Assembly (NCBI GenBank): GCA_048886185.1
Contig: JBHLKY010000018.1
Location: 1-32,000, forward strand
Origin: Candidatus Hermodarchaeota archaeon
GTDB taxonomy: Archaea; Asgardarchaeota; Heimdallarchaeia; Hodarchaeales; Hodarchaeaceae
DNA length: 32,000 bases
Direction: 5' to 3'
Notes under the pieces: generated by a model
What the model was told of the DNA's origin: nothing
Database searches by the model: none
The model's input: the letters and a program-made list of their open reading frames with translations, nothing else
Translations under genes and position numbers: made by a program
Shown here: piece by piece, positions 14,932-23,456 of the stretch
Layout of the letters: the number at the start of each line of letters is the position of its first letter
Numbering within the stretch: position 1 is the first letter of the stretch

Positions 14932-15744
14932 TCAATTTTCACCGAATTCTCCAAGGATCTCCTTCGGTAAAGCGTAAAATCCAGTTAAAAGAATGGCTAA
15001 AGAGACTAAAAATATATTGAACCAAACAAACCAGATATATCTCAATTCGTCAAAGTGCCATGGAGCCCATGCAAGATATGCTATTCCAAAGAGAGTGAAT
15101 CCAGCTGTTATAACTTTTGGTGAATTTAAACCTGCACCTTTACCATAATTATACCATAAGATAGCTAAAATGAAAGCCATAGGCACAAATTCCCAATACA
15201 AAAATCCATACATTGTAAGCTCAATGTCACCAACTAGGATTAAACCGATAAAAAACCATAATTCTCCTAAAATTACTATTATAAGAGCTGCAAGATAAGT
15301 ACATTTAGGACAATCTGTATAGAGCTTCGTTACACCTATCCACATTCCCGCAACCCAAAGGATCATGGGTGATCGCCATATTAGAAAGATAAATGGATCT
15401 GTCATATCAGCCCAATCAACCCCCCAAGCCTGCAGAAGTAAACCTAAAAATGTTATTGAATAAATAAGGAAGGAAGAACCCCAAATAAGTTGGAAGGGGG
15501 CCTTTTCTAAGGGCCTTGCTTTAGCAAAGTAACGATAAAGTAAATATCCTCCAATGATAAGGAGGAGAATAAATCCTGTGAGTGAAGCACCAAATAAATC
15601 ATAAGAATCTATTATTTCAGATACAGCAAAACCTTTGGGTTTAGCTACTACTATAATAGTAGTAAATATATATATTACTACCATTATAACAATATATCCA
15701 CTATTTCGGGTAATGAAATCCGTTATATCTTTTTGTAATGACAT
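14932..15744 (-). CDS. 8-TM membrane protein (paralog A), possible stand-alone sensor-type domain
   Basis: Eight hydrophobic segments and a GGTGG SD. Aligns end to end with 16514-17347 (WGxSFLxY..FLGL, GMWIGxxKL, GExW, W.PW, GFY.LxK). Confidence 0.85.
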   Translation of the reverse strand: MSLQKDITDFITRNSGYIVIMVVIYIFTTIIVVAKPKGFAVSEIIDSYDLFGASLTGFILLLIIGGYLLYRYFAKARPLEKAPFQLIWGSSFLIYSITFLGLLLQAWGVDWADMTDPFIFLIWRSPMILWVAGMWIGVTKLYTDCPKCTYLAALIIVILGELWFFIGLILVGDIELTMYGFLYWEFVPMAFILAILWYNYGKGAGLNSPKVITAGFTLFGIAYLAWAPWHFDELRYIWFVWFNIFLVSLAILLTGFYALPKEILGEFGEN

Positions 15745-15890: not shown

Positions 15891-16403
15891 CTAAGACCCC
15901 AATTGCTTTATAGTGCTTTCTAAATCCTTAGATAGAAAATTACGCTCAAAAGACGTCAAACAGATAATACTTCTTGTTCTTGCTACTCCTTCTAAACGGC
16001 TAAGCTTGATTAGATTTTGCTCAAATGAGGCAATATTTCGTGTTCGTATTTTAATGATCACATCCTCTTGCCCCGCAATATGATGAATCTCGAGTATTTC
16101 TAATTCATCCATTCGTGAGAGCATTTTCTCATCGATAATACCATGATAAGCTATTCCTTTAGGGGTCTGATATTCTAGGAAGATAAATGCAGTGATTTCT
16201 TTCCCAAGTAAATAATCGTTAGTCAAGACAGTATAACGTAAGACATCATTATCTTCTAGATATTTAATACGTTTCTGAATGGTTTGTCTGGATAATTGCA
16301 TTTTATTGGCGATTTGAGAATGTGACCATTTTGGATGCTTTTTTAGAAAAGTAATGATCTTTCTGTCCTTTTCGTCAATTTTTATTGAATTTAATTCATT
16401 CAA
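15891..16403 (-). CDS. Lrp/AsnC family transcriptional regulator
   Basis: IDEKDRKII, HTH SHSQIANKMQLSRQTIQKRIKYLEDNDVL and RAM domain HHIAGQEDVIIKI...EGVARTRSII. Start placed at TTG 16403 behind GAGGG. Confidence 0.92.
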   Translation of the reverse strand: MNELNSIKIDEKDRKIITFLKKHPKWSHSQIANKMQLSRQTIQKRIKYLEDNDVLRYTVLTNDYLLGKEITAFIFLEYQTPKGIAYHGIIDEKMLSRMDELEILEIHHIAGQEDVIIKIRTRNIASFEQNLIKLSRLEGVARTRSIICLTSFERNFLSKDLESTIKQLGS

Positions 16404-16543
16404 AATTAATACCCTCGTTGTCAATACCCTATATAAATGCAATTATCAGATAGTTAAAAATATTTTGGTGAAACTGACTTGTTGACTATCAATAAATTTA
16501 TATAATTTACAAAGTGTTAGATTACATGAAAAGAAGTGATGAA
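16404..16543. promoter_or_regulatory. Divergent promoter region between Lrp and 8-TM paralog B
   Basis: TATA-like CTATATAAAT and TTTATATAAT, plus a TTGA-N3-TCAA inverted repeat (TTGACTATCAA) between the divergent starts. Confidence 0.4.
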
Positions 16544-17347
16544 ATGAAGACAAGAAATTTACAAGAAAATTATTATCAACAAATAGTTGACTTTGGACGT
16601 TCCCGTCCTTGGCTACCCTTAGTTGGGATAATATACATATTCTTGGCCACAATCATATTAACGCAATCTTCTTCCCTTCTCATTCCTGAACTGAATGTCT
16701 CAACGATCCAATTTGTTCTATCTTTCATCGTACTACTCATCTTATCAACAATAGGACTTTATTTACTCGTTAATAACTATCAAATTGTTTGGGGATTATC
16801 TTTCCTCCTATATGCGTTCTCTTTTCTTGGACTTTGCTTAAGGATATTTGGTCTTCCTTTAACTGATATAAATAATCCGATTATCTTCCATATTTGGTTA
16901 TTACCCTTGATTTTCTTTACTTCTGGCATGTGGATTGGTACCAGTAAGCTTCTCTTTGAAGATAAAATATCTAATTATCTTCCTGCTCTCTTAATCCTTC
17001 TAGTTGGAGAATGTTGGTCTCTTGTTGGTCTACTCATGTTAAAAAATGTTACACTGACAATCTTGGGACTTCAATATGGTTTATTCATACCAGTAGTCTT
17101 ATTTTTTACCTATATTTGGATTTATTTAGCTAAAACCTCACCATATAGTTCTCCTTGGTTTCTAGCTCTTGGTTTTCTTGTATTGGCTGTAATATATTGT
17201 TTCTGGAATCCTTGGATGTCTAGCGATCTCCTTCTATATAGTGTTTTTTTCAGTCTCTTCAATATCGCTCTTGGGATTATTCTTATTGGATTTTATTTCT
17301 TAACAAAGGATCTAAAGATGAATCAAGATTACATCCAAGCAAAATAA
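16514..17347 (+). CDS. 8-TM membrane protein (paralog B)
   Basis: Eight TM segments and a clear paralog of 14932-15744. True start may be ATG 16526 or 16544. Confidence 0.85.
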   Translation: MLDYMKRSDEMKTRNLQENYYQQIVDFGRSRPWLPLVGIIYIFLATIILTQSSSLLIPELNVSTIQFVLSFIVLLILSTIGLYLLVNNYQIVWGLSFLLYAFSFLGLCLRIFGLPLTDINNPIIFHIWLLPLIFFTSGMWIGTSKLLFEDKISNYLPALLILLVGECWSLVGLLMLKNVTLTILGLQYGLFIPVVLFFTYIWIYLAKTSPYSSPWFLALGFLVLAVIYCFWNPWMSSDLLLYSVFFSLFNIALGIILIGFYFLTKDLKMNQDYIQAK

Positions 17348-17420: not shown

Positions 17421-18524
17421 TTAGAATTCTTTATAATGGTTAAACTCTTCTAGCTCTTTCTGAAGTACCATTTTCTTCTCTATCTCTCCCTCAGTCGGAT
17501 AAGGTGTATCAATCCAGAGATCAACTTCAGGGAGTCTCAAATTTTTTCGAACTCGCTTCTCTAATACCCCAAATCCGACACGAGATGCCATAAATTTAAT
17601 AAACTTAAACTTGATTTTTGTAACAACCTTTTCCCATTCTTTCGCAAACTCACCGTTTTCAATATGATGTAAAACGCCTTTCTGAATAAGTAACACTTCA
17701 TCAATGACTTTTTTATATCTCATTCCTCGACTTAAGAGCCCATATTGAGATCGGTCATCCAGAAGTCCAACCTGATTTATTATCCCGACATCCAACATAT
17801 TCTGAAATAAATGTTTCATGGTTCCTGAAAGGATGAATTCAACCAATACTGCTTCTTCGGGGTACCCTGCTTCAATAAGTAAATCAATAGGCTTCATCAT
17901 TATTTGACTACTTGCTGGCCCAAATCCCTGTTCCGTAAATAGGTCAAGAAAGGTCTCTTGTTCAAAAGTAACTCTGATTCCAGCCTTACTTAAACCCCCT
18001 ACAGCTTTACTTAATGCTAATAATTTCTCCTCCGCCTTTCCAGAAGCATCTTGATGAATTCCAATGAAACTAAAATATCCCTGACCATTTAAAATACATT
18101 CTCTCACCCCAATACCAATCATTCTTGGTGCTATTAAGAGTACGTCAATATTCTTAGGGGGAATGATCAATTTAAACGCGATATTGTACCCATGAGCAAA
18201 AATGAGAGCAGCCTGGGTTTTCAAATAGGGTTCCACTTGTTTCCTGTATACTTGATTCATTATTTCATCTGGAATTAGCAAGAAAAGAGCATCGGCCATT
18301 TTTGTTGCTTCAAAAATTTCAAAAGTTGGGAATCCATCCTTTTCTGCTCGTACCCGATAATCATCTTTGCGATTACCAACAACAACATTAATCCCCACAT
18401 CACGCATATTGAGGGCTTGCGATCGTCCTTGATTTCCATATCCAATTATTGCTACAGTTTTTCCCTCCAAGACATCTAAATCGCCATCAGTTTCATGATA
18501 TAACTTTGCATCCACTCTTATCAC
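17421..18524 (-). CDS. Ketol-acid reductoisomerase (class I IlvC)-like protein, subunit A: cis catalytic residues intact, trans residues lost
   Basis: GYGNQG, LIPDE, FAHGYNI and TFEQETFLDLFTEQ are intact. LVEFILSGT and LLDDRSQYG replace the SGE and HSxTSQYG motifs seen in the paralog. Confidence 0.9.
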   Translation of the reverse strand: MIRVDAKLYHETDGDLDVLEGKTVAIIGYGNQGRSQALNMRDVGINVVVGNRKDDYRVRAEKDGFPTFEIFEATKMADALFLLIPDEIMNQVYRKQVEPYLKTQAALIFAHGYNIAFKLIIPPKNIDVLLIAPRMIGIGVRECILNGQGYFSFIGIHQDASGKAEEKLLALSKAVGGLSKAGIRVTFEQETFLDLFTEQGFGPASSQIMMKPIDLLIEAGYPEEAVLVEFILSGTMKHLFQNMLDVGIINQVGLLDDRSQYGLLSRGMRYKKVIDEVLLIQKGVLHHIENGEFAKEWEKVVTKIKFKFIKFMASRVGFGVLEKRVRKNLRLPEVDLWIDTPYPTEGEIEKKMVLQKELEEFNHYKEF

Positions 18525-18530
18525 TACCTG

Positions 18531-19628
18531 TCATAATTCATCATAAAATTCTTTCATCTCCTCCAATTCTTCCTTTAAACTTGGATATTTATTAATTTCA
18601 GTCTCAGGAGGAAAAGAAAGTTTTTCAGCAATGATAGATTTCTTAAAACCAAGAGTATCACGAACTTCCTGCTCAATGCTAGCAAATTTAGTCTTTGATT
18701 CAAGATATCTCATAATTCTTAGTCTAAGTTTACTCTCGTCCTTTTTCCACTCTTTAGTGAACCTTCCATCTTCAATTTCTTTGAGAATGACTCTTTGTAT
18801 TTCTTCAACTTCTTTAGCCACTTTTTGAAATTTCATTCCTCGTGTCATCTGTCCATATTGGGATGTTTGAGAATGGAAATTCATTTGTCTAATCATGCCG
18901 ACATCGATGATCTTATCCACCGTGAACCCACCTTCTCCTGATAGAATTAGTTCAATAAAAATAGCCTCAGGTGGATATCCATCTTCAATCAATCTGAGAA
19001 TAGATCTCATAAGAACTTGAGTCAGAGCATATGTAAATGTTTGAGTGACAAAAAGACTTAATACTGCTTGTTGTTTGAATGTAACTTCAATCGCGGGTTT
19101 TATTAATCCTCCAATTCCCCTGACGAGGGCTAATAGAGTTTTTTTCGCAAGACCTGTAAAATCCTGATAAATCCCCACAAAGGAATAATATCCTTTTTTA
19201 GTAATGAAACTCTCTCTTATAACAATTCCAGGAACTCTAGGAGAGATAAGGATAACATCTACATTTTTGGGGGGAGAAATCATATCATAGGCGACTGTAT
19301 ACCCACTGCCAAACACAAGCGTATGCTTATCCTTCAAATACGGCTTTACCTGGTCATTAAAGATTCTTACCATATCATCATCTGATACAAGTAAGAAGAG
19401 AATATCTGATTTTTCTATTATTTCAGGGATTTCACCAATGGAAAATCCATCATTTTTAGCTCGTTGTTTGTAGATATCATTCTGTGGCCCTATTATGACC
19501 TGCAAACCTGAATCTTGTAAATTTAAAGCTTGAGCACGAGCTTGATTACCATAACCTATTATAGCTATTATTTTATCCTTCAAGAGTGATAGGTTTCCCT
19601 CTTCTGTATAATAAATAGAAGTCATCAT
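18531..19628 (-). CDS. Ketol-acid reductoisomerase (class I IlvC)-like protein, subunit B: cis residues lost, trans residues intact
   Basis: GYGNQA, LVSDD, FGSGY and TFKQQAVLSLFVTQ are degenerate. IELILSGE and HSQTSQYG are intact. Confidence 0.9.
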   Translation of the reverse strand: MMTSIYYTEEGNLSLLKDKIIAIIGYGNQARAQALNLQDSGLQVIIGPQNDIYKQRAKNDGFSIGEIPEIIEKSDILFLLVSDDDMVRIFNDQVKPYLKDKHTLVFGSGYTVAYDMISPPKNVDVILISPRVPGIVIRESFITKKGYYSFVGIYQDFTGLAKKTLLALVRGIGGLIKPAIEVTFKQQAVLSLFVTQTFTYALTQVLMRSILRLIEDGYPPEAIFIELILSGEGGFTVDKIIDVGMIRQMNFHSQTSQYGQMTRGMKFQKVAKEVEEIQRVILKEIEDGRFTKEWKKDESKLRLRIMRYLESKTKFASIEQEVRDTLGFKKSIIAEKLSFPPETEINKYPSLKEELEEMKEFYDEL

Positions 19629-19678
19629 GTATTACCCATTAATTTTCTCTTTTACTATTAATTTCTGATAATGGAGTA

Positions 19679-21115
19679 TTAAATAATGTAGAAAGCCTTG
19701 AGGAGGAAGAATCCATAGAAGATTATTGAAAGACATATGATTATTACCTCAAAAATGGAAAAACGATATTCTTTAGGCAACAATATGTAATTAACCGCAA
19801 GTAGGCCAATAGAAAAAATAACACCACCAATATTTGCCAATGATCCAGCTAGGAGAACCATGGTTACAGGAGGAGTACCTATAATAATTATGAAAATCCA
19901 GAGTACGATAAAAATACCAAGAATTCCGTAATAAACGGGGCGAATATCCCCCCTAAAACGCTCATGAAGACTTGGGAAACTATTCCAGATAATATTCGCA
20001 AACTGTCGTATAATACCATCAACGACACCTGTTCCATCAGCAAAAAACACTAAAGCAAACATAATTAGAATTAAGGCCCAAGAGAAAACTATGACTGTAC
20101 CTAAGTTTTGAGCGAGGCTAGCGGTAAATCCAAAGATGTTTTCAGTGGCTGCTTCGGAGGGAACATAATAGTAAAAAAGAGCACAAGGGAATAACATTGT
20201 AATCAAACTCCCAAAAAAGAAAATTGGTATTAATTCCAATAGAATATATTTGTACCATTTTTTTACCCGTTGTTTATTCTCCTCATCTACTTTTGGCATA
20301 TATCCTTTTACTAAGAAGTCTACTTTTTCACCTCCAAGAGCCCCAGGAATGTGACCCAGTTTAGAGGCCATTCCCCATCCAGTATCACGATAATAAGCGG
20401 AGATACTCATTCCAGCACTGGCAGCAAGGCCTGCAAATCCCGCTACTGCTCCTAATGCTAACCAATCTGCACCCTCAGGCAGGTAACCAAAGCTAAAAAA
20501 CCCAGAAAAAACCTCCACTATCGTTCCAAGTGGAACAGTGAATAGGGTTATGATTATTAGTAGGGGAATGATAATCAAGAAGTGTATAATGAAGAACATT
20601 AATCCTAGAGTTCTCATTACCTTTTTACCTAAAAAAAGTGGAATCAAAATAATTCCTAAAGCAACTAATGTGAAAATAACCCACAAAAATTGACTTTCAG
20701 AAGTGGGAACGTCGTTTATGATCATAGCTACAAAAGTTACTCCAAGTAATGCGGGATAATAAGGAAATATTGCTGATAATGTTCCAAGAACCACCCATAT
20801 AGCTGTCCATCCTTTTTTACTGAACCATAAGCGATTCAATCCAATTTGAAACGGTTCCCCAGTTAGAATAGTATATTTGGAAGCGCTAATAGCTGTTACG
20901 GTCTGTAGAAAAATACTGATGAGTGCTACCCATAAAATGAGAGGCCCATGCCTTACTATTAGATACGGCCCAGATACAAGTTCACCAGTACCTAAACCAA
21001 GTCCTAAAGCGATAATTCCTGGTCCTATAAGAAATTTAAGGTAATCTCGCCAACTTTTTATTTCAAAAGATTCTGGAATATCCGCTACACCAGTAAATTC
21101 TTTATCTGTACCCAT
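19679..21115 (-). CDS. APC-superfamily (Nramp-like) secondary transporter, non-canonical
   Basis: GPGIIALGLGLGTGE TM1 motif, G.LILWV..ISIFLQ and about 11-12 TMs. Lacks the DPGN motif of true MntH/Nramp. Confidence 0.85.
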   Translation of the reverse strand: MGTDKEFTGVADIPESFEIKSWRDYLKFLIGPGIIALGLGLGTGELVSGPYLIVRHGPLILWVALISIFLQTVTAISASKYTILTGEPFQIGLNRLWFSKKGWTAIWVVLGTLSAIFPYYPALLGVTFVAMIINDVPTSESQFLWVIFTLVALGIILIPLFLGKKVMRTLGLMFFIIHFLIIIPLLIIITLFTVPLGTIVEVFSGFFSFGYLPEGADWLALGAVAGFAGLAASAGMSISAYYRDTGWGMASKLGHIPGALGGEKVDFLVKGYMPKVDEENKQRVKKWYKYILLELIPIFFFGSLITMLFPCALFYYYVPSEAATENIFGFTASLAQNLGTVIVFSWALILIMFALVFFADGTGVVDGIIRQFANIIWNSFPSLHERFRGDIRPVYYGILGIFIVLWIFIIIIGTPPVTMVLLAGSLANIGGVIFSIGLLAVNYILLPKEYRFSIFEVIIICLSIIFYGFFLLKAFYII

Positions 21116-21284
21116 TATATTACCTCACTGTATATTTATGCCATTGTTTTTCATCATTCTAAAATTATATGAAATTTTACTAAATTTCACAATAAAATCT
21201 TTAAAGGTTGATCTACTAATCTAATGAAAGACTAAAGATTTGTTACTCCATTATCTACTTTTAGGAATTTCTGGAGTGTTTGAA

Positions 21285-23456
21285 TTGGCAAAAGTAAAAT
21301 TTTCTACAAGGAGTAGAATTGATATAAAACGGTTAGTCCTTCGAATTTTTCGTATTCTGATCTTTCTTCTAGGTGTTTTCTCTATAATATTCTTCTATTT
21401 CGATGTCATTGGCTTAATAATTGGTTTTCTGTTTTTCTTAGTTTTTAAGGGTGATTGGAAACTTCATGGATTAGTACTCGCGTTTTCAACGGCAATCTCA
21501 TCATTATTACCACAAAGAGGTATAGCAGATATCACAGGTATATATCCCTTATATCTTGTGATTCTTACAGGGTGGGGGATGATTTGTACATACTTTCTAA
21601 TATTTATTCTTTTTAGAATTGCCTCAAAGTATGAGTTCTTTACTCAGTGGAGATCTACATTACATCAAAAACTGAATTATTACAAATTTCCCCAGAAATA
21701 TAACTCTTATTTTCTTATTGGTCTAATTCTCATTCCTATTACAATTTGGATGAATATAAACATAAATTTTTCTGTTATACTTGATAATAACCCCAAACTC
21801 TTATGGATTAATGCACCTTCAACTGTTGACGAAAATACTTCTTTTAATATCACAGTTGAAGCTTGGGATCGTTTTGAGAGATTAAGTGCGATATATCAAG
21901 GAACAGTTGCATTTTCTTTGGAATCATATAATTTAACGACATTAACTCCCCTTTCTGTTGTAATAGCAGAACTTCCTTCTGATTATACATTCACAGGACA
22001 GTTTCTCCCTTCGGATATCGCCTATAACATTAATAATGGTAAAGATAATGGATTGCATGTATTTAATGTAAAAATTGATACTCCTGGTATCCACTATATT
22101 CTCGTACAAGATTCTGTAACCCGCAATAAATACTATAGCAATCCAATTGTGGTTCAAGATACAGAGATTAACATTTATTGGGGAGATATTCATAATCATT
22201 CATATTTAAGTGATGGAAGTGGATCTGTAACCCATGCATACTACTATGCAAGGTATATTGCCTGTTTAGATTATTTCGCACTGACAGATCATGGTGAGAT
22301 AGTCTCCTTTGTAAATAATGGTTTCAGAAATTATCAGATTTCAACTGAGAACGCTTATGAATCAAATAAATTTGTAACTTTTCATGGGATGGAATACACT
22401 AATCATCAAACTGGGCATTTTGCATGCATTTTCAACAGCATCAATCTGCCTGAAGATCCCATAATCTCATCCTATGCAGGAATTAGTACACCATTTGATT
22501 TGTGGAGTATTTTGGATAATTTTACGGTATCAACGGGTGATAGGGTGCTGGCATTACCTCACCATTGTGTGAAGCGAAGTTATATGCAAGATTGGACATA
22601 TATGAATCCCAATTACGTTAAGATTGCAGAAGTAACATCTGTCCATGGGGATTCTCTCTTTGAACCAAGCCATCCACTGAGTTACCGAGGATCTACAGTC
22701 CCACCTCCTAAACACACAAATGGTTGTTCCATTATAGATGCTTTGAAAATGGGTTATCGATTATCCCTATATGCTAGTAGTGATAGCCATGATGGCCATC
22801 CAGGACATTCAATATCTCATACCCCTGCACATGTTGCTCATCAAAATCCCTGGACAACATGGTGGACAAGAATTGACAAACCCTATCCTGGGGGATTAAC
22901 CGCAGTCTATGCTCATAGATTAACTCGAAGAACTGTATTTTCATCGTTAGAAGAACGGAGAATTTTCGCTAATTCAGATCATGGACGTCCAATATTAGAT
23001 TTTACTATTAATGATCTAACAGTAGGAGAATCAAATTCAACTCTCATAGTTGTAAATGCCACTGTTCCCCGTCATATTGAAGTATTTCTAGCTCAAGATG
23101 GTTCCCCAGCAAGTACTAAGCGCTCAGCTGCTTCTGTAAACCCAAATTGGAAACCTAATTGGAATGCTACTATTGAAATCATAAAAAATGGAGAAATTCT
23201 TACGCAGATCCTGATCACTAATCCAATAAGTGCTGTGACTTTTGTAGATAACTCTCCAGTTAGCGGTACAAAATATGGAGAAGAAAGCTGTACAAAGAGA
23301 GGAAATAACTATTATATCAACAAGTTTAGTGATAACCCGGTAGAAAAACCAGAGGATCTTAAGACCAATAGTAGCGATTTTTACTTAATCAGAGTCGTTG
23401 GAGCGAATGGACGTCATTCATTTATTGGGCCTATCTGGGTAGAAGTAATGCAATAA
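21285..23456 (+). CDS. Membrane-anchored PHP-fold metallohydrolase (CehA/McbA-, DUF3604-like) with an Ig-like linker
   Basis: N-terminal TM bundle, then a beta-rich linker, then YWGDIHNHSYLSDG, LDYFALTDH, GMEYT, GH, PHH, EVTSVHG and ASSDSHDGHPG metal-binding motifs. Many sequons. Start placed at TTG 21285 behind GGAGTG. Confidence 0.85.
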   Translation: MAKVKFSTRSRIDIKRLVLRIFRILIFLLGVFSIIFFYFDVIGLIIGFLFFLVFKGDWKLHGLVLAFSTAISSLLPQRGIADITGIYPLYLVILTGWGMICTYFLIFILFRIASKYEFFTQWRSTLHQKLNYYKFPQKYNSYFLIGLILIPITIWMNININFSVILDNNPKLLWINAPSTVDENTSFNITVEAWDRFERLSAIYQGTVAFSLESYNLTTLTPLSVVIAELPSDYTFTGQFLPSDIAYNINNGKDNGLHVFNVKIDTPGIHYILVQDSVTRNKYYSNPIVVQDTEINIYWGDIHNHSYLSDGSGSVTHAYYYARYIACLDYFALTDHGEIVSFVNNGFRNYQISTENAYESNKFVTFHGMEYTNHQTGHFACIFNSINLPEDPIISSYAGISTPFDLWSILDNFTVSTGDRVLALPHHCVKRSYMQDWTYMNPNYVKIAEVTSVHGDSLFEPSHPLSYRGSTVPPPKHTNGCSIIDALKMGYRLSLYASSDSHDGHPGHSISHTPAHVAHQNPWTTWWTRIDKPYPGGLTAVYAHRLTRRTVFSSLEERRIFANSDHGRPILDFTINDLTVGESNSTLIVVNATVPRHIEVFLAQDGSPASTKRSAASVNPNWKPNWNATIEIIKNGEILTQILITNPISAVTFVDNSPVSGTKYGEESCTKRGNNYYINKFSDNPVEKPEDLKTNSSDFYLIRVVGANGRHSFIGPIWVEVMQ

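Follow-up and report, generated by a model that had tools for sequence, protein, structure and literature searches.

A tandem pair of Asgard ketol-acid reductoisomerase paralogs with reciprocal active-site losses, predicted to form an obligate heteromer

Introduction

Ketol-acid reductoisomerase (KARI) serves as a standard model of knotted folds, of active sites shared between subunits and of the origin of a class II enzyme by duplication of a knotted domain. Known class I KARIs are homo-oligomers in which every chain carries all of the ligands, with two sites per dimer. In the class II enzyme of E. coli one knotted repeat supplies the Asp and Glu, and the other supplies the Glu, Glu and Ser. 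In class I, one subunit contributes both its N and its C domain to each site and its partner adds a C domain, and class II KARI arose by duplication of the C domain (PMC13753588). Several enzymes of the family combine altered sites with new chemistry, for example BurG and ApnO (PMC13753588). BurG (PDB 7pcc and others) and ApnO (D-apionate oxidoisomerase) have the KARI fold and act outside branched-chain synthesis, and the substrate of a KARI-like protein therefore cannot be read from its fold alone.

Paralog heteromers in which one shared site is live and the other dead are exemplified by the trypanosomatid deoxyhypusine synthase DHSc/DHSp and the yeast NAD-isocitrate dehydrogenase IDH1/IDH2. 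In both, a homomer with an interface site was duplicated, the copies suffered complementary losses and the heteromer became obligatory, with fewer sites. The two KARI paralogs described here, A and B, would be a comparable case, although these precedents differ from them in fold and chemistry and are eukaryotic. As the original prediction had supposed, such a KARI appears to be new: a literature search found no published heteromeric KARI and no published Asgard KARI.

Results

Two adjacent class I KARI genes

The window analysed is a single stretch of 32,000 nucleotides, in which two ORFs had been called as tandem class I KARI paralogs. Both are present, on the minus strand (Table 1), and both match the Pfam domains KARI_N and KARI_C (1.7e-55 and 4.8e-14 for A, 2.2e-46 and 1.6e-16 for B), giving each the class I layout of a Rossmann KARI_N domain and one knotted KARI_C domain in ~330-370 aa. 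The two proteins are 43% identical. The best PDB match of A is 6jcv (5.7e-67), and B matches 7q03 at 2.6e-59; BurG chains are also present among the PDB matches of both. Each protein scores under the NCBIfam ilvC equivalog cutoffs, at 211 (A) and 201 (B) bits against 226 for TIGR00465, and at 242 (A) and 230 (B) bits against 336 for NF004017.

The gap between B and A is 6-15 nt, with an SD-like GGTAGTGA ahead of GTG 18515. Because this element precedes GTG 18515, and because the homologues are 364 aa long, GTG 18515 is more likely to be the start of A than GTG 18524. The sequence of the junction is consistent with co-transcription and coupled translation of the two genes.

Table 1. Coordinates of the KARI pair, its diagnostic codons and the neighbouring genes in the window.
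Feature	Position	Strand	Description
Paralog A	17421..18524	(-)	367 aa from GTG 18524, probably 364 aa from GTG 18515; predicted catalytic subunit
A R258	17751-17753		T253' position
A D256	17757-17759		S251' position
A T235	17820-17822		E230' position
A E198	17931-17933		E194 position
A D194	17943-17945		D190 position
B-to-A junction	18516..18533	(-)	B stop TGA, then CAGGTAGTGATAAGA, then GTG 18515
Paralog B	18531..19628	(-)	365 aa; upstream gene of the pair; predicted trans half-site donor
B H252-S253-Q-T255	18864-18875		trans set
B E232	18933-18935		trans set
B E226	18951-18953		trans set
B T195	19044-19046		cis position
B S191	19056-19058		cis position
Polytopic membrane protein	19679..21115	(-)	478 aa; distant NRAMP-like (LeuT-fold) transporter; directly upstream of B
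Membrane-anchored DUF3604 protein	21240..23456	(+)	738 aa; divergently transcribed; Pfam DUF3604 3e-11

Each paralog has lost a different half of the active site

Residues were equated by HMMER alignments to the solved KARIs 5yeq, 7q03 and 6jcv and by a MAFFT alignment of 203 Asgard homologues, and the equivalence to solved class I enzymes presupposed by the original prediction holds. Asp190 of KARI bridges both metals, and Glu226, Glu230 and Ser251 are the ligands that we take to come from the partner subunit, on the basis of the KARI structures of P. aeruginosa and S. aureus together with the A-B contacts modelled below. Paralog A keeps the cis ligands D194 and E198 and retains E229 as the counterpart of E226', and its other trans positions are degenerate (T235 at the second trans Glu, D256 and R258). 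Paralog B has lost the cis ligands, with S191 and T195 in their place, and has an intact trans set of E226, E232 and H252-S253-Q-T255. The full ligand set (Asp190, Glu194, Glu226, Glu230 and Ser251) is thus absent from either chain alone and complete only in A and B jointly. The codon coordinates of these diagnostic residues were checked. Since the subfamily to which A and B belong has a 2-residue insertion (SG) ahead of the second Glu, the match of E232 to Glu230' is one drawn from the alignment.

The ligand residues first read as kept in A and B, and the Thr of A, were borne out in this way, and the cis losses first listed for B were borne out in part. S191 and T195 stand, and GxGxxA, the form seen in B (GYGNQA), is specific to the B-type (31/34). 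The FGSG motif does not belong on the list. Ser at the 'His107' position (FxSG) is found in 129 of 135 Asgard copies with a complete site and Arg at the 'Lys130' position (APR) in 131 of them, both also occurring in the solved Sulfolobus enzyme 6jcv, and as judged from the alignment these states are the default of the whole archaeal subfamily and not B-specific losses. With this Ser107/Arg130 subfamily (6jcv and the complete Asgard copies), A and B share the two Pfam domains, FxSG, APR and the SG insertion. GxGxxA is not necessarily disabling. The GYGNQA loop is nearly invariant in B, and the N domain of B is therefore not simply decaying.

We consider it likely, in agreement with the original prediction, that A and B together make up an obligate heteromeric enzyme of the class I KARI type, with one competent site per dimer. 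An ancestral homodimeric Asgard KARI of the complete type would have been duplicated in tandem, and the copies would have lost opposite halves, as is permitted by a class I site shared between subunits. A would have kept the Rossmann/NAD(P)H pocket with the cis Asp and Glu, and B the trans Glu, Glu, Ser and Thr. The knotted A:B dimer would then join the cis ligands of A to the trans ligands of B in one complete two-metal site, its other site, made of B cis and A trans, would be dead, and neither subunit could complete a site with itself. We thus infer that A and B associate physically, that each dimer has a single active site and that the homodimers are inactive.

The reciprocal pattern is conserved across Asgard pairs

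The 203 Asgard homologues comprise 135 of the complete type (~359 aa), 33 A-type and 35 B-type sequences, and none of them has lost both halves. Column states were tallied for 32 A-type and 34 B-type sequences. D190, E194 and E226 are invariant in 32/32 A-types, in which the E230 position is K, N, Q, R, W, T or A and never E; A-types show seven different residues at this position and five each at the S251 and T253 positions. Conversely, E226, E230, S251 and T253 are invariant in 34/34 B-types, in which the D190 position is S, K, N, G, A, E or Q and never D; a Glu at the E194 position is retained in 15/34. Homologous pairs therefore keep the complementary pattern, as had been predicted, and its recurrence in every A-type and B-type sequence tallied places it far beyond chance.

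The same division emerged when the 141 columns that the complete type conserves were scanned without bias. Thirty-nine are kept only in A and lie in the N domain (29-145) and the cis helix (187-203); a further 19 are kept only in B, with 12 falling within 235-267. Identities among A-types exceed those among B-types in the N domain (0.665 against 0.502) and in the cis helix (0.661 against 0.479), and the order is reversed in the trans segment 226-270 (0.491 against 0.750, with B above A in 65/66 comparisons). This segment is the least conserved part of A and the only region in which A is not the more conserved of the two. Overall B evolves faster (0.507 identity against 0.612), there are 72 invariant columns in A and 35 in B, and the C-terminal tail is twice as conserved in A. 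Reciprocal constraint of this kind extends across ~35 pairs.

These data bear on the possibility that A alone is the whole enzyme, a homodimer (A2) whose metal site is reduced to Asp, Glu and Glu and which acts, for example, as a plain reductase, with B a non-catalytic partner or regulator or a separate protein. A does retain the entire cis set and E226, the altered-site enzymes BurG and ApnO offer precedents, and B is the faster evolving protein. However, the trans positions of A are unconstrained and lie in its least conserved segment, the invariance of the trans residues of B is unexplained unless they serve a live site, and A was never seen without B nearby at the loci examined. We therefore regard this reading as unlikely. 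On the heteromeric reading, the invariant trans residues of B must lie opposite a cis half that works, which A alone possesses, so that B would serve the site of A.

A and B are inherited together

In the tree of the family the A-type forms one clan (SH-aLRT 99) and the B-type another (SH-aLRT 100), with mirrored sub-topologies, and pairwise identities of A and of B correlate across 12 genomes (r = 0.83). Adjacent KARI pairs do occur in other genomes, as the original prediction suggested might be found: B lies upstream of A at 17/17 pair loci examined, 15 of them adjacent, with intergenic gaps of about 5-50 nt, and two separated by 2.8-4.4 kb. At loci with enough flanking DNA no degenerate copy lacks a partner nearby, and no other KARI_N match is present in any of the ~10 pair genomes checked. 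The complete-type copies located in species genomes are, in 20/20 cases, the only full-length copy at their locus. At least three Asgard families have kept the pair.

Alternatively, A and B could be independent homodimeric isozymes with different non-canonical activities, adjacent only through tandem duplication. Genomes with multiple ilvC paralogs are common, the PDB title of 6jcv is 'Putative ketol-acid reductoisomerase 2', and in two genomes (G150 and L056) 2-3 other genes separate B and A. Against this, a B2 dimer would lack the metal-bridging Asp190 in both sites, the exact complementarity of the losses has persisted across three families, and neither type is found alone where the flanking DNA suffices to tell, with sub-trees that mirror one another; we consider such independence very improbable. 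That one or both genes are decaying, functionless duplicates is scarcely credible, since both ORFs are intact in three or more Asgard families and the invariant columns reflect region-specific constraint, even though both proteins score under the ilvC cutoffs, the pair is found in only 4/22 species of the genus and one genome has a KARI copy with internal stop codons.

A model of the A-B complex

The A+B complex was modelled with an ipSAE of 0.91 against 0.00 for the best control, a pass that rests on likeness to solved KARI homodimers and that any two class I KARIs would probably achieve. The mark used is reached by 58/80 solved complexes and by 2/110 mismatched pairs. Three runs agreed in at least 95% of contacts, with a partner pLDDT of 89. 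The modelled dimer is intertwined as in class I KARI and has ~400 contacts, among them A229-B190, A226-B190 and residues 85-87 and 134-136 of A against B; the placement of A229 against B190 in the model is trans geometry. The GYGNQA loop of B touches A, whereas the equivalent loop of A makes no contact with B.

Neighbouring genes

The 478-aa membrane protein upstream of B has no Pfam match and has Atlas feature matches to Nramp/MntH clusters at 0.98. In Foldseek its AF2 model (pLDDT 61, pTM 0.69) best matches YcsG, a Deinococcus Nramp and EleNRMT (TM 0.55-0.67), with LAT/APC transporters ranking next. Homologues of this protein (60-87% identity) lie beside or between B and A at six other loci (G067, G076, G057, L012, G131 and L056), and linkage of the transporter to the pair extends over three lineages. 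By eye, a PHP-like HxH metal hydrolase motif can be seen in the DUF3604 protein, which recurs beside the module, with homologues (55-57% identity) at the same position in L012 and G131.

Substrate and metabolic context

The chemistry of A:B is most likely the Mg-dependent reduction of a 2-keto/2-hydroxy acid by NAD(P)H, which alkyl migration may or may not accompany. Whether acetolactate or acetohydroxybutyrate has remained the substrate is somewhat doubtful. Because neighbouring pathway steps are missing from the genome of the pair studied (G000, 96% complete) and because the pair travels with the NRAMP-like transporter, we give at least equal weight to a role in the salvage or catabolism of an imported acid.

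The large and small subunits of acetolactate synthase and the dihydroxy-acid dehydratase, by which the branched-chain pathway was judged, were not found in G000: no acetolactate synthase scored above cutoff, ilvN is absent, and ilvD is absent, with a syntenic gap relative to G067. Loss of ilvD to an assembly gap was considered and rejected, since the G067 cassette is cleanly absent between syntenic genes on contig 13 of G000. That cassette, which encodes a GFO/MocA oxidoreductase, an IlvD/EDD dehydratase, a TPP enzyme and an MFS_2 sugar carrier, looks like sugar-acid catabolism and not ilv. Assignment of the TPP enzymes of G000 as acetolactate synthase was not supported; they score below cutoff and lie in unrelated contexts, beside ADH/GNAT or AOR/epimerase/3-hydroxyacyl-CoA dehydrogenase genes. 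Matches to the IlvD/EDD family are present in ten other pair genomes.

A role for A:B as the ketopantoate reductase was likewise rejected, as contig 19 of G000 carries a 306-aa ApbA/PanE gene ~2 kb from panB. In most congeners these genes lie 2-3 kb apart, and across the genus ApbA matches are found in 22/22 species and panB in 21/22. For the complete-type Asgard KARI, the context at 3/3 loci is an Arf-like GTPase, KARI, EamA and then an ADP-forming acyl-CoA synthetase, and at none of the three is the gene inside an ilv operon.

Discussion

Whereas in known class I KARIs each chain has the full set of ligands, in A and B the set is complete only across both chains. A close parallel to the proposed A:B dimer is class II KARI (E. 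coli and plants), together with the engineered duplicated-domain KARI of Ignisphaera (5e4r), in which two knotted C-domain copies likewise serve one site. The resemblance is functional, and A and B are not class II members. A class II enzyme is a single fused chain (~490-525 aa) with one Rossmann domain, whereas A and B are separate ORFs of 367 and 365 aa with a stop codon between them, and a second Rossmann domain, that of B, is retained under relaxed constraint. Their duplication was also independent of that of class II, involving the whole gene and falling inside the Asgard clade. BurG and ApnO differ from the proposed enzyme in being homodimers, ApnO with Zn and His ligands, whereas the composite A:B site would keep the canonical Asp/Glu/Glu/Glu/Ser.

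A search among 50%-identity representatives, in which the Asgard family is collapsed to a few sequences, found no second independent heteromer system, the other degenerate KARI-like matches being solitary or on very short contigs.

A more far-reaching proposal, which taken as a whole we think rather unlikely, is that the spare Rossmann domain of B has a new job in what would amount to an unfused, class II-like KARI. The dead site might then bind a nucleotide or effector in a regulatory role, or receive the tail of A as a docking socket, as suggested by the near-invariance of GYGNQA in B, its contact with A in the model and the doubled conservation of the A tail. Together with the NRAMP-like carrier and the DUF3604 hydrolase, the enzyme would process an imported hydroxy or keto acid in an Asgard pathway not yet described, instead of serving valine/isoleucine synthesis.

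If the heteromeric reading is correct, a natural two-gene KARI would be a living parallel to the origin of class II, kept in several Asgard families, and would offer a clean, testable case of complementary degenerative mutations locking a homomer into an obligate heteromer. Genes of the A- and B-type now carry the label 'ketol-acid reductoisomerase' or 'NAD(P)-binding protein' and are counted as ordinary IlvC in Asgard metabolic reconstructions; in G000 an ordinary IlvC label would wrongly imply a branched-chain pathway.

Two KARI paralogs with complementary active-site losses

The two KARI genes of the window are listed with their neighbours in the table. At their junction the B stop codon TGA is followed by CAGGTA, a first GTG (18524), ATAAGA and a second GTG (18515). 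Since homologues of A in the databases have a length of 364 aa, A probably starts at GTG 18515, behind the SD-like GGTAGTGA, and the intergenic gap is 6-15 nt. Both proteins match Pfam KARI_N and KARI_C, both score below the NCBIfam ilvC equivalog cutoffs, and they are 43% identical in an alignment without gaps. Among solved structures, archaeal class I KARIs come closest (6jcv for A, 5.7e-67; 7q03 for B, 2.6e-59). No further KARI gene was found in the window's genome (4.84 Mb, 96% complete), and the named homologues come from Asgard archaea throughout (Hod-, Heimdall-, Loki-, Thor-, Odin- and Hermod-archaeota).

Features of the window around the KARI pair
Feature	Coordinates	Strand	Description
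Lrp/AsnC regulator flanked by two paralogous membrane proteins	14932-15744, 15891-16442, 16514-17347		membrane proteins ~270 aa, polytopic, no Pfam family
A	17421-18524	-	ORF, 367 aa, second of pair, downstream of B
B	18531-19628	-	ORF, 365 aa, first of head-to-tail pair
Spacer	19629-19678		50 nt, between NRAMP-like gene and B
Membrane protein	19679-21115		478 aa, no Pfam match, directly upstream of B
DUF3604 gene	21240-23456	divergent	recurs in L012 and G131

We take Asp190 and Glu194 to be supplied by a subunit's own chain (cis) and Glu226, Glu230 and Ser251 to be donated by its partner (trans), as in the structures from P. aeruginosa, S. aureus and E. coli. Residue equivalence was assigned from HMMER alignments to 5yeq, 7q03 and 6jcv and from a MAFFT alignment of 203 homologues. 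The two agree, and they bear out the reciprocal ligand loss of the original prediction. A has the cis half (Asp194 and Glu198 at the Asp190 and Glu194 positions) together with Glu229 at the Glu226 position, and is altered in the trans half, with Thr235 at Glu230, Asp256 at Ser251 and Arg258 at Thr253. B is altered in the cis half (Ser191 at Asp190, Thr195 at Glu194) and intact in the trans half (Glu226, Glu232, Ser253, Thr255). The FGSG motif of B had also been counted as a loss, which has to be withdrawn: serine at the 'His107' position is the subfamily norm, found in 129 of 135 complete Asgard copies and in 6jcv, and among A-type homologues the position holds His in 13 and Ser in 19. Nor is the APR motif of A and B a loss, arginine at the 'Lys130' position being present in 131/135 complete Asgard copies and in 6jcv.

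The pattern is kept across Asgard homologues

When the 203 homologues were sorted by six ligand columns (Asp, Glu, Glu, Glu, Ser, Thr in the complete type), 135 proved complete, 33 A-type and 35 B-type; by these columns, none of the 203 had lost both halves. The column counts leave out two database entries that duplicate A and B of the window. In the remaining 32 A-types neither the cis Asp and Glu nor Glu226 ever varies, and the Glu230 position holds K, N, Q, R, W, T or A, never E; in the remaining 34 B-types Glu226, Glu230, Ser251 and Thr253 are invariant and the Asp190 position holds S, K, N, G, A, E or Q, never D. The complementary pattern expected of homologous pairs is kept, and the variety of replacements shows that positions in the lost half went on drifting after the split, with the opposite half frozen.

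In a maximum-likelihood tree A and B each form one clan (SH-aLRT 99 and 100, respectively) with mirrored internal branching, and A and B pairwise identities correlate across 12 genomes (r = 0.83). Both observations are consistent with one old duplication followed by co-inheritance. In one species genome (L042, G163:C57:678-1700) a B-type copy with five internal stop codons adjoins a truncated A-type ORF, representing either a decaying pair or poor assembly. Outside the Asgard pair clade, four KARI-like representatives (P0222, P0251, P0264, P0289) lack at least one metal ligand, for example with Asn at the Asp190 position; the two that were looked up are solitary or on a 1-kb contig.

Adjacent pairs, sought in species-representative genomes and long metagenomic contigs, were found with B immediately upstream of A at 15 of 17 pair loci, separated by ~5-50 nt. 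In one sub-lineage (genome G150 and BAJALOKI2 contig L056) the genes lie 2.8-4.4 kb apart. Some ten pair genomes were checked by family search and gave exactly two KARI_N matches each, so that no other KARI is present in any of them; of 20 complete-type copies mapped to species genomes, each is the sole full-length copy at its locus. Two Loki-type pairs (L011, L057) are flanked by a Ras-like GTPase gene and an EamA-like gene, a neighbourhood that in other Asgard genomes holds the single complete copy, which fits duplication of KARI in place. The complete gene has a ~202-aa Arf/Ras-like small GTPase gene upstream on the same strand, then an EamA carrier gene in convergent orientation and one for an ADP-forming acyl-CoA synthetase, in this order at 3/3 loci from different MAGs (L048:7319-9083, L049:7332-9080, L050:7324-9080). 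We know of no reason for the GTPase-KARI linkage.

Reciprocal constraint points to a probable heteromer with one competent site

Among 141 alignment columns with a conservation of at least 90% in the complete type, A and B both retain 56. Thirty-nine are kept in A only, almost all in the N domain (29-145, including the GxGxxG, LxPDE and APRMIGxGVRE loops) and the cis-ligand helix (187-203), and 19 in B only, 12 of them within the trans-ligand segment 235-267. Mean pairwise identity over 12 pair genomes is 0.665 in A and 0.502 in B for the N domain, 0.661 and 0.479 for the cis helix, and 0.491 and 0.750 for residues 226-270, where identity is higher in B in 65 of 66 comparisons. The invariant columns of the A and B alignments agree with these regional values.

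Having no cis half of its own, B would use its trans cluster to serve the site of A: the frozen Glu/Glu/Ser/Thr cluster would face a working cis half-site, and the drifting trans residues of A would face a site of no consequence, that of B. No other simple explanation of the reciprocal constraint suggests itself, and we consider it quite probable, from these comparisons of sequence, that A and B form an obligate heteromer with one competent site per dimer. Every comparative test run supported this interpretation.

A and B were also co-folded, with a separate alignment per chain, in three runs with three controls. The model reached an ipSAE of 0.91 (three runs) against 0.00 for the best control, a score that shows likeness to solved KARI homodimers and not mutual preference; the ipSAE mark is reached by 58/80 solved complexes and 2/110 mismatched pairs. 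The runs share at least 95% of contacts, with a partner pLDDT of 89, and the interface has ~400 contacts, as for an intertwined knotted dimer. A226, A228 and A229 contact B190 and B148, the N-domain loops 85-87 and 134-136 of A reach B, and B 225-238 and 250-264 reach A. In the model, these contacts are the trans geometry that the heteromer hypothesis requires. The interface is asymmetric, in that nucleotide-loop residues 25 and 27-32 of B touch A and the equivalent loop of A is not listed as touching B. The C-terminal tail of A (354-367) makes many more modelled contacts than that of B and is about twice as conserved (0.544 vs 0.277 identity); it may sit on the vestigial cofactor cleft of B.

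By fold and sequence A and B are class I KARIs, of the archaeal Ser107/Arg130 subfamily of 6jcv. A full ligand set per chain defines class I; A and B each have part of the set and score below the equivalog cutoffs. Each class I active site combines the N and C domains of one subunit with the C domain of the other, and in class II KARIs duplication of the C domain built this shared-site architecture within one chain (PMC13753588). The functional likeness is two knotted domains forming one site; the pair differs in having two polypeptides and an extra Rossmann domain. In concept the pair also resembles heteromers of paralogs in which one shared site is live and the other dead, such as trypanosomatid DHSc/DHSp and yeast IDH1/IDH2. 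No heteromeric or Asgard-specific KARI was described in the literature searched.

Possible substrate

With all canonical ligands retained, the composite site would most likely reduce a 2-keto or 2-hydroxy acid with NAD(P)H in an Mg-dependent reaction, which may or may not include a rearrangement. Neither ilvD nor ilvN was found in the window's genome, and its two TPP enzymes are not supported as acetolactate synthase, as they score below cutoff and lie in unrelated gene contexts. The absence of ilvD is real, given a clean syntenic gap relative to the complete genome of a congener (G067). There, a cassette (L051:6449-12767) encodes an IlvD/EDD dehydratase that passes the ilvD cutoff, together with a GFO/MocA oxidoreductase, a TPP enzyme and an MFS_2 sugar carrier; all four genes are precisely missing between syntenic genes on contig 13 of the window's genome (about 96640-97038). 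The cassette looks like sugar-acid catabolism, so 'ilvD' calls in the genus should not be taken as valine synthesis. Ketopantoate reduction was rejected as the role of the pair: a PanE gene lies near panB, and both are present across the genus. The pair occurs in only 4/22 species of the genus and is thus accessory there. IlvD/EDD-family matches were found in all ten other pair genomes tested, where a true KARI role is possible.

Genes flanking the pair

Homologues of the 478-aa membrane protein (60-87% identity) adjoin the pair in G067, G076, G057, L012 and G131, and in L056 one sits between B and A. Language-model features group it with Nramp/MntH clusters at 0.98. Its AF2 model is modest (pLDDT 61, pTM 0.69), with YcsG, Deinococcus Nramp and EleNRMT as top matches (TM 0.55-0.67); LAT/APC carriers come next. 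In place of the canonical metal motif DPGN, inspection by eye gives GTGE, so a metal substrate should not be assumed. An AT-rich TTAATAGT, also noted by eye, lies in the spacer ~30 nt before the B start codon. It could be an archaeal TATA box, in which case the B-A pair would have a near-leaderless transcript of its own. The two membrane proteins flanking the Lrp/AsnC regulator are ~37% identical to each other's homologues, and the trio is conserved in G067 (L010:13477-16451).
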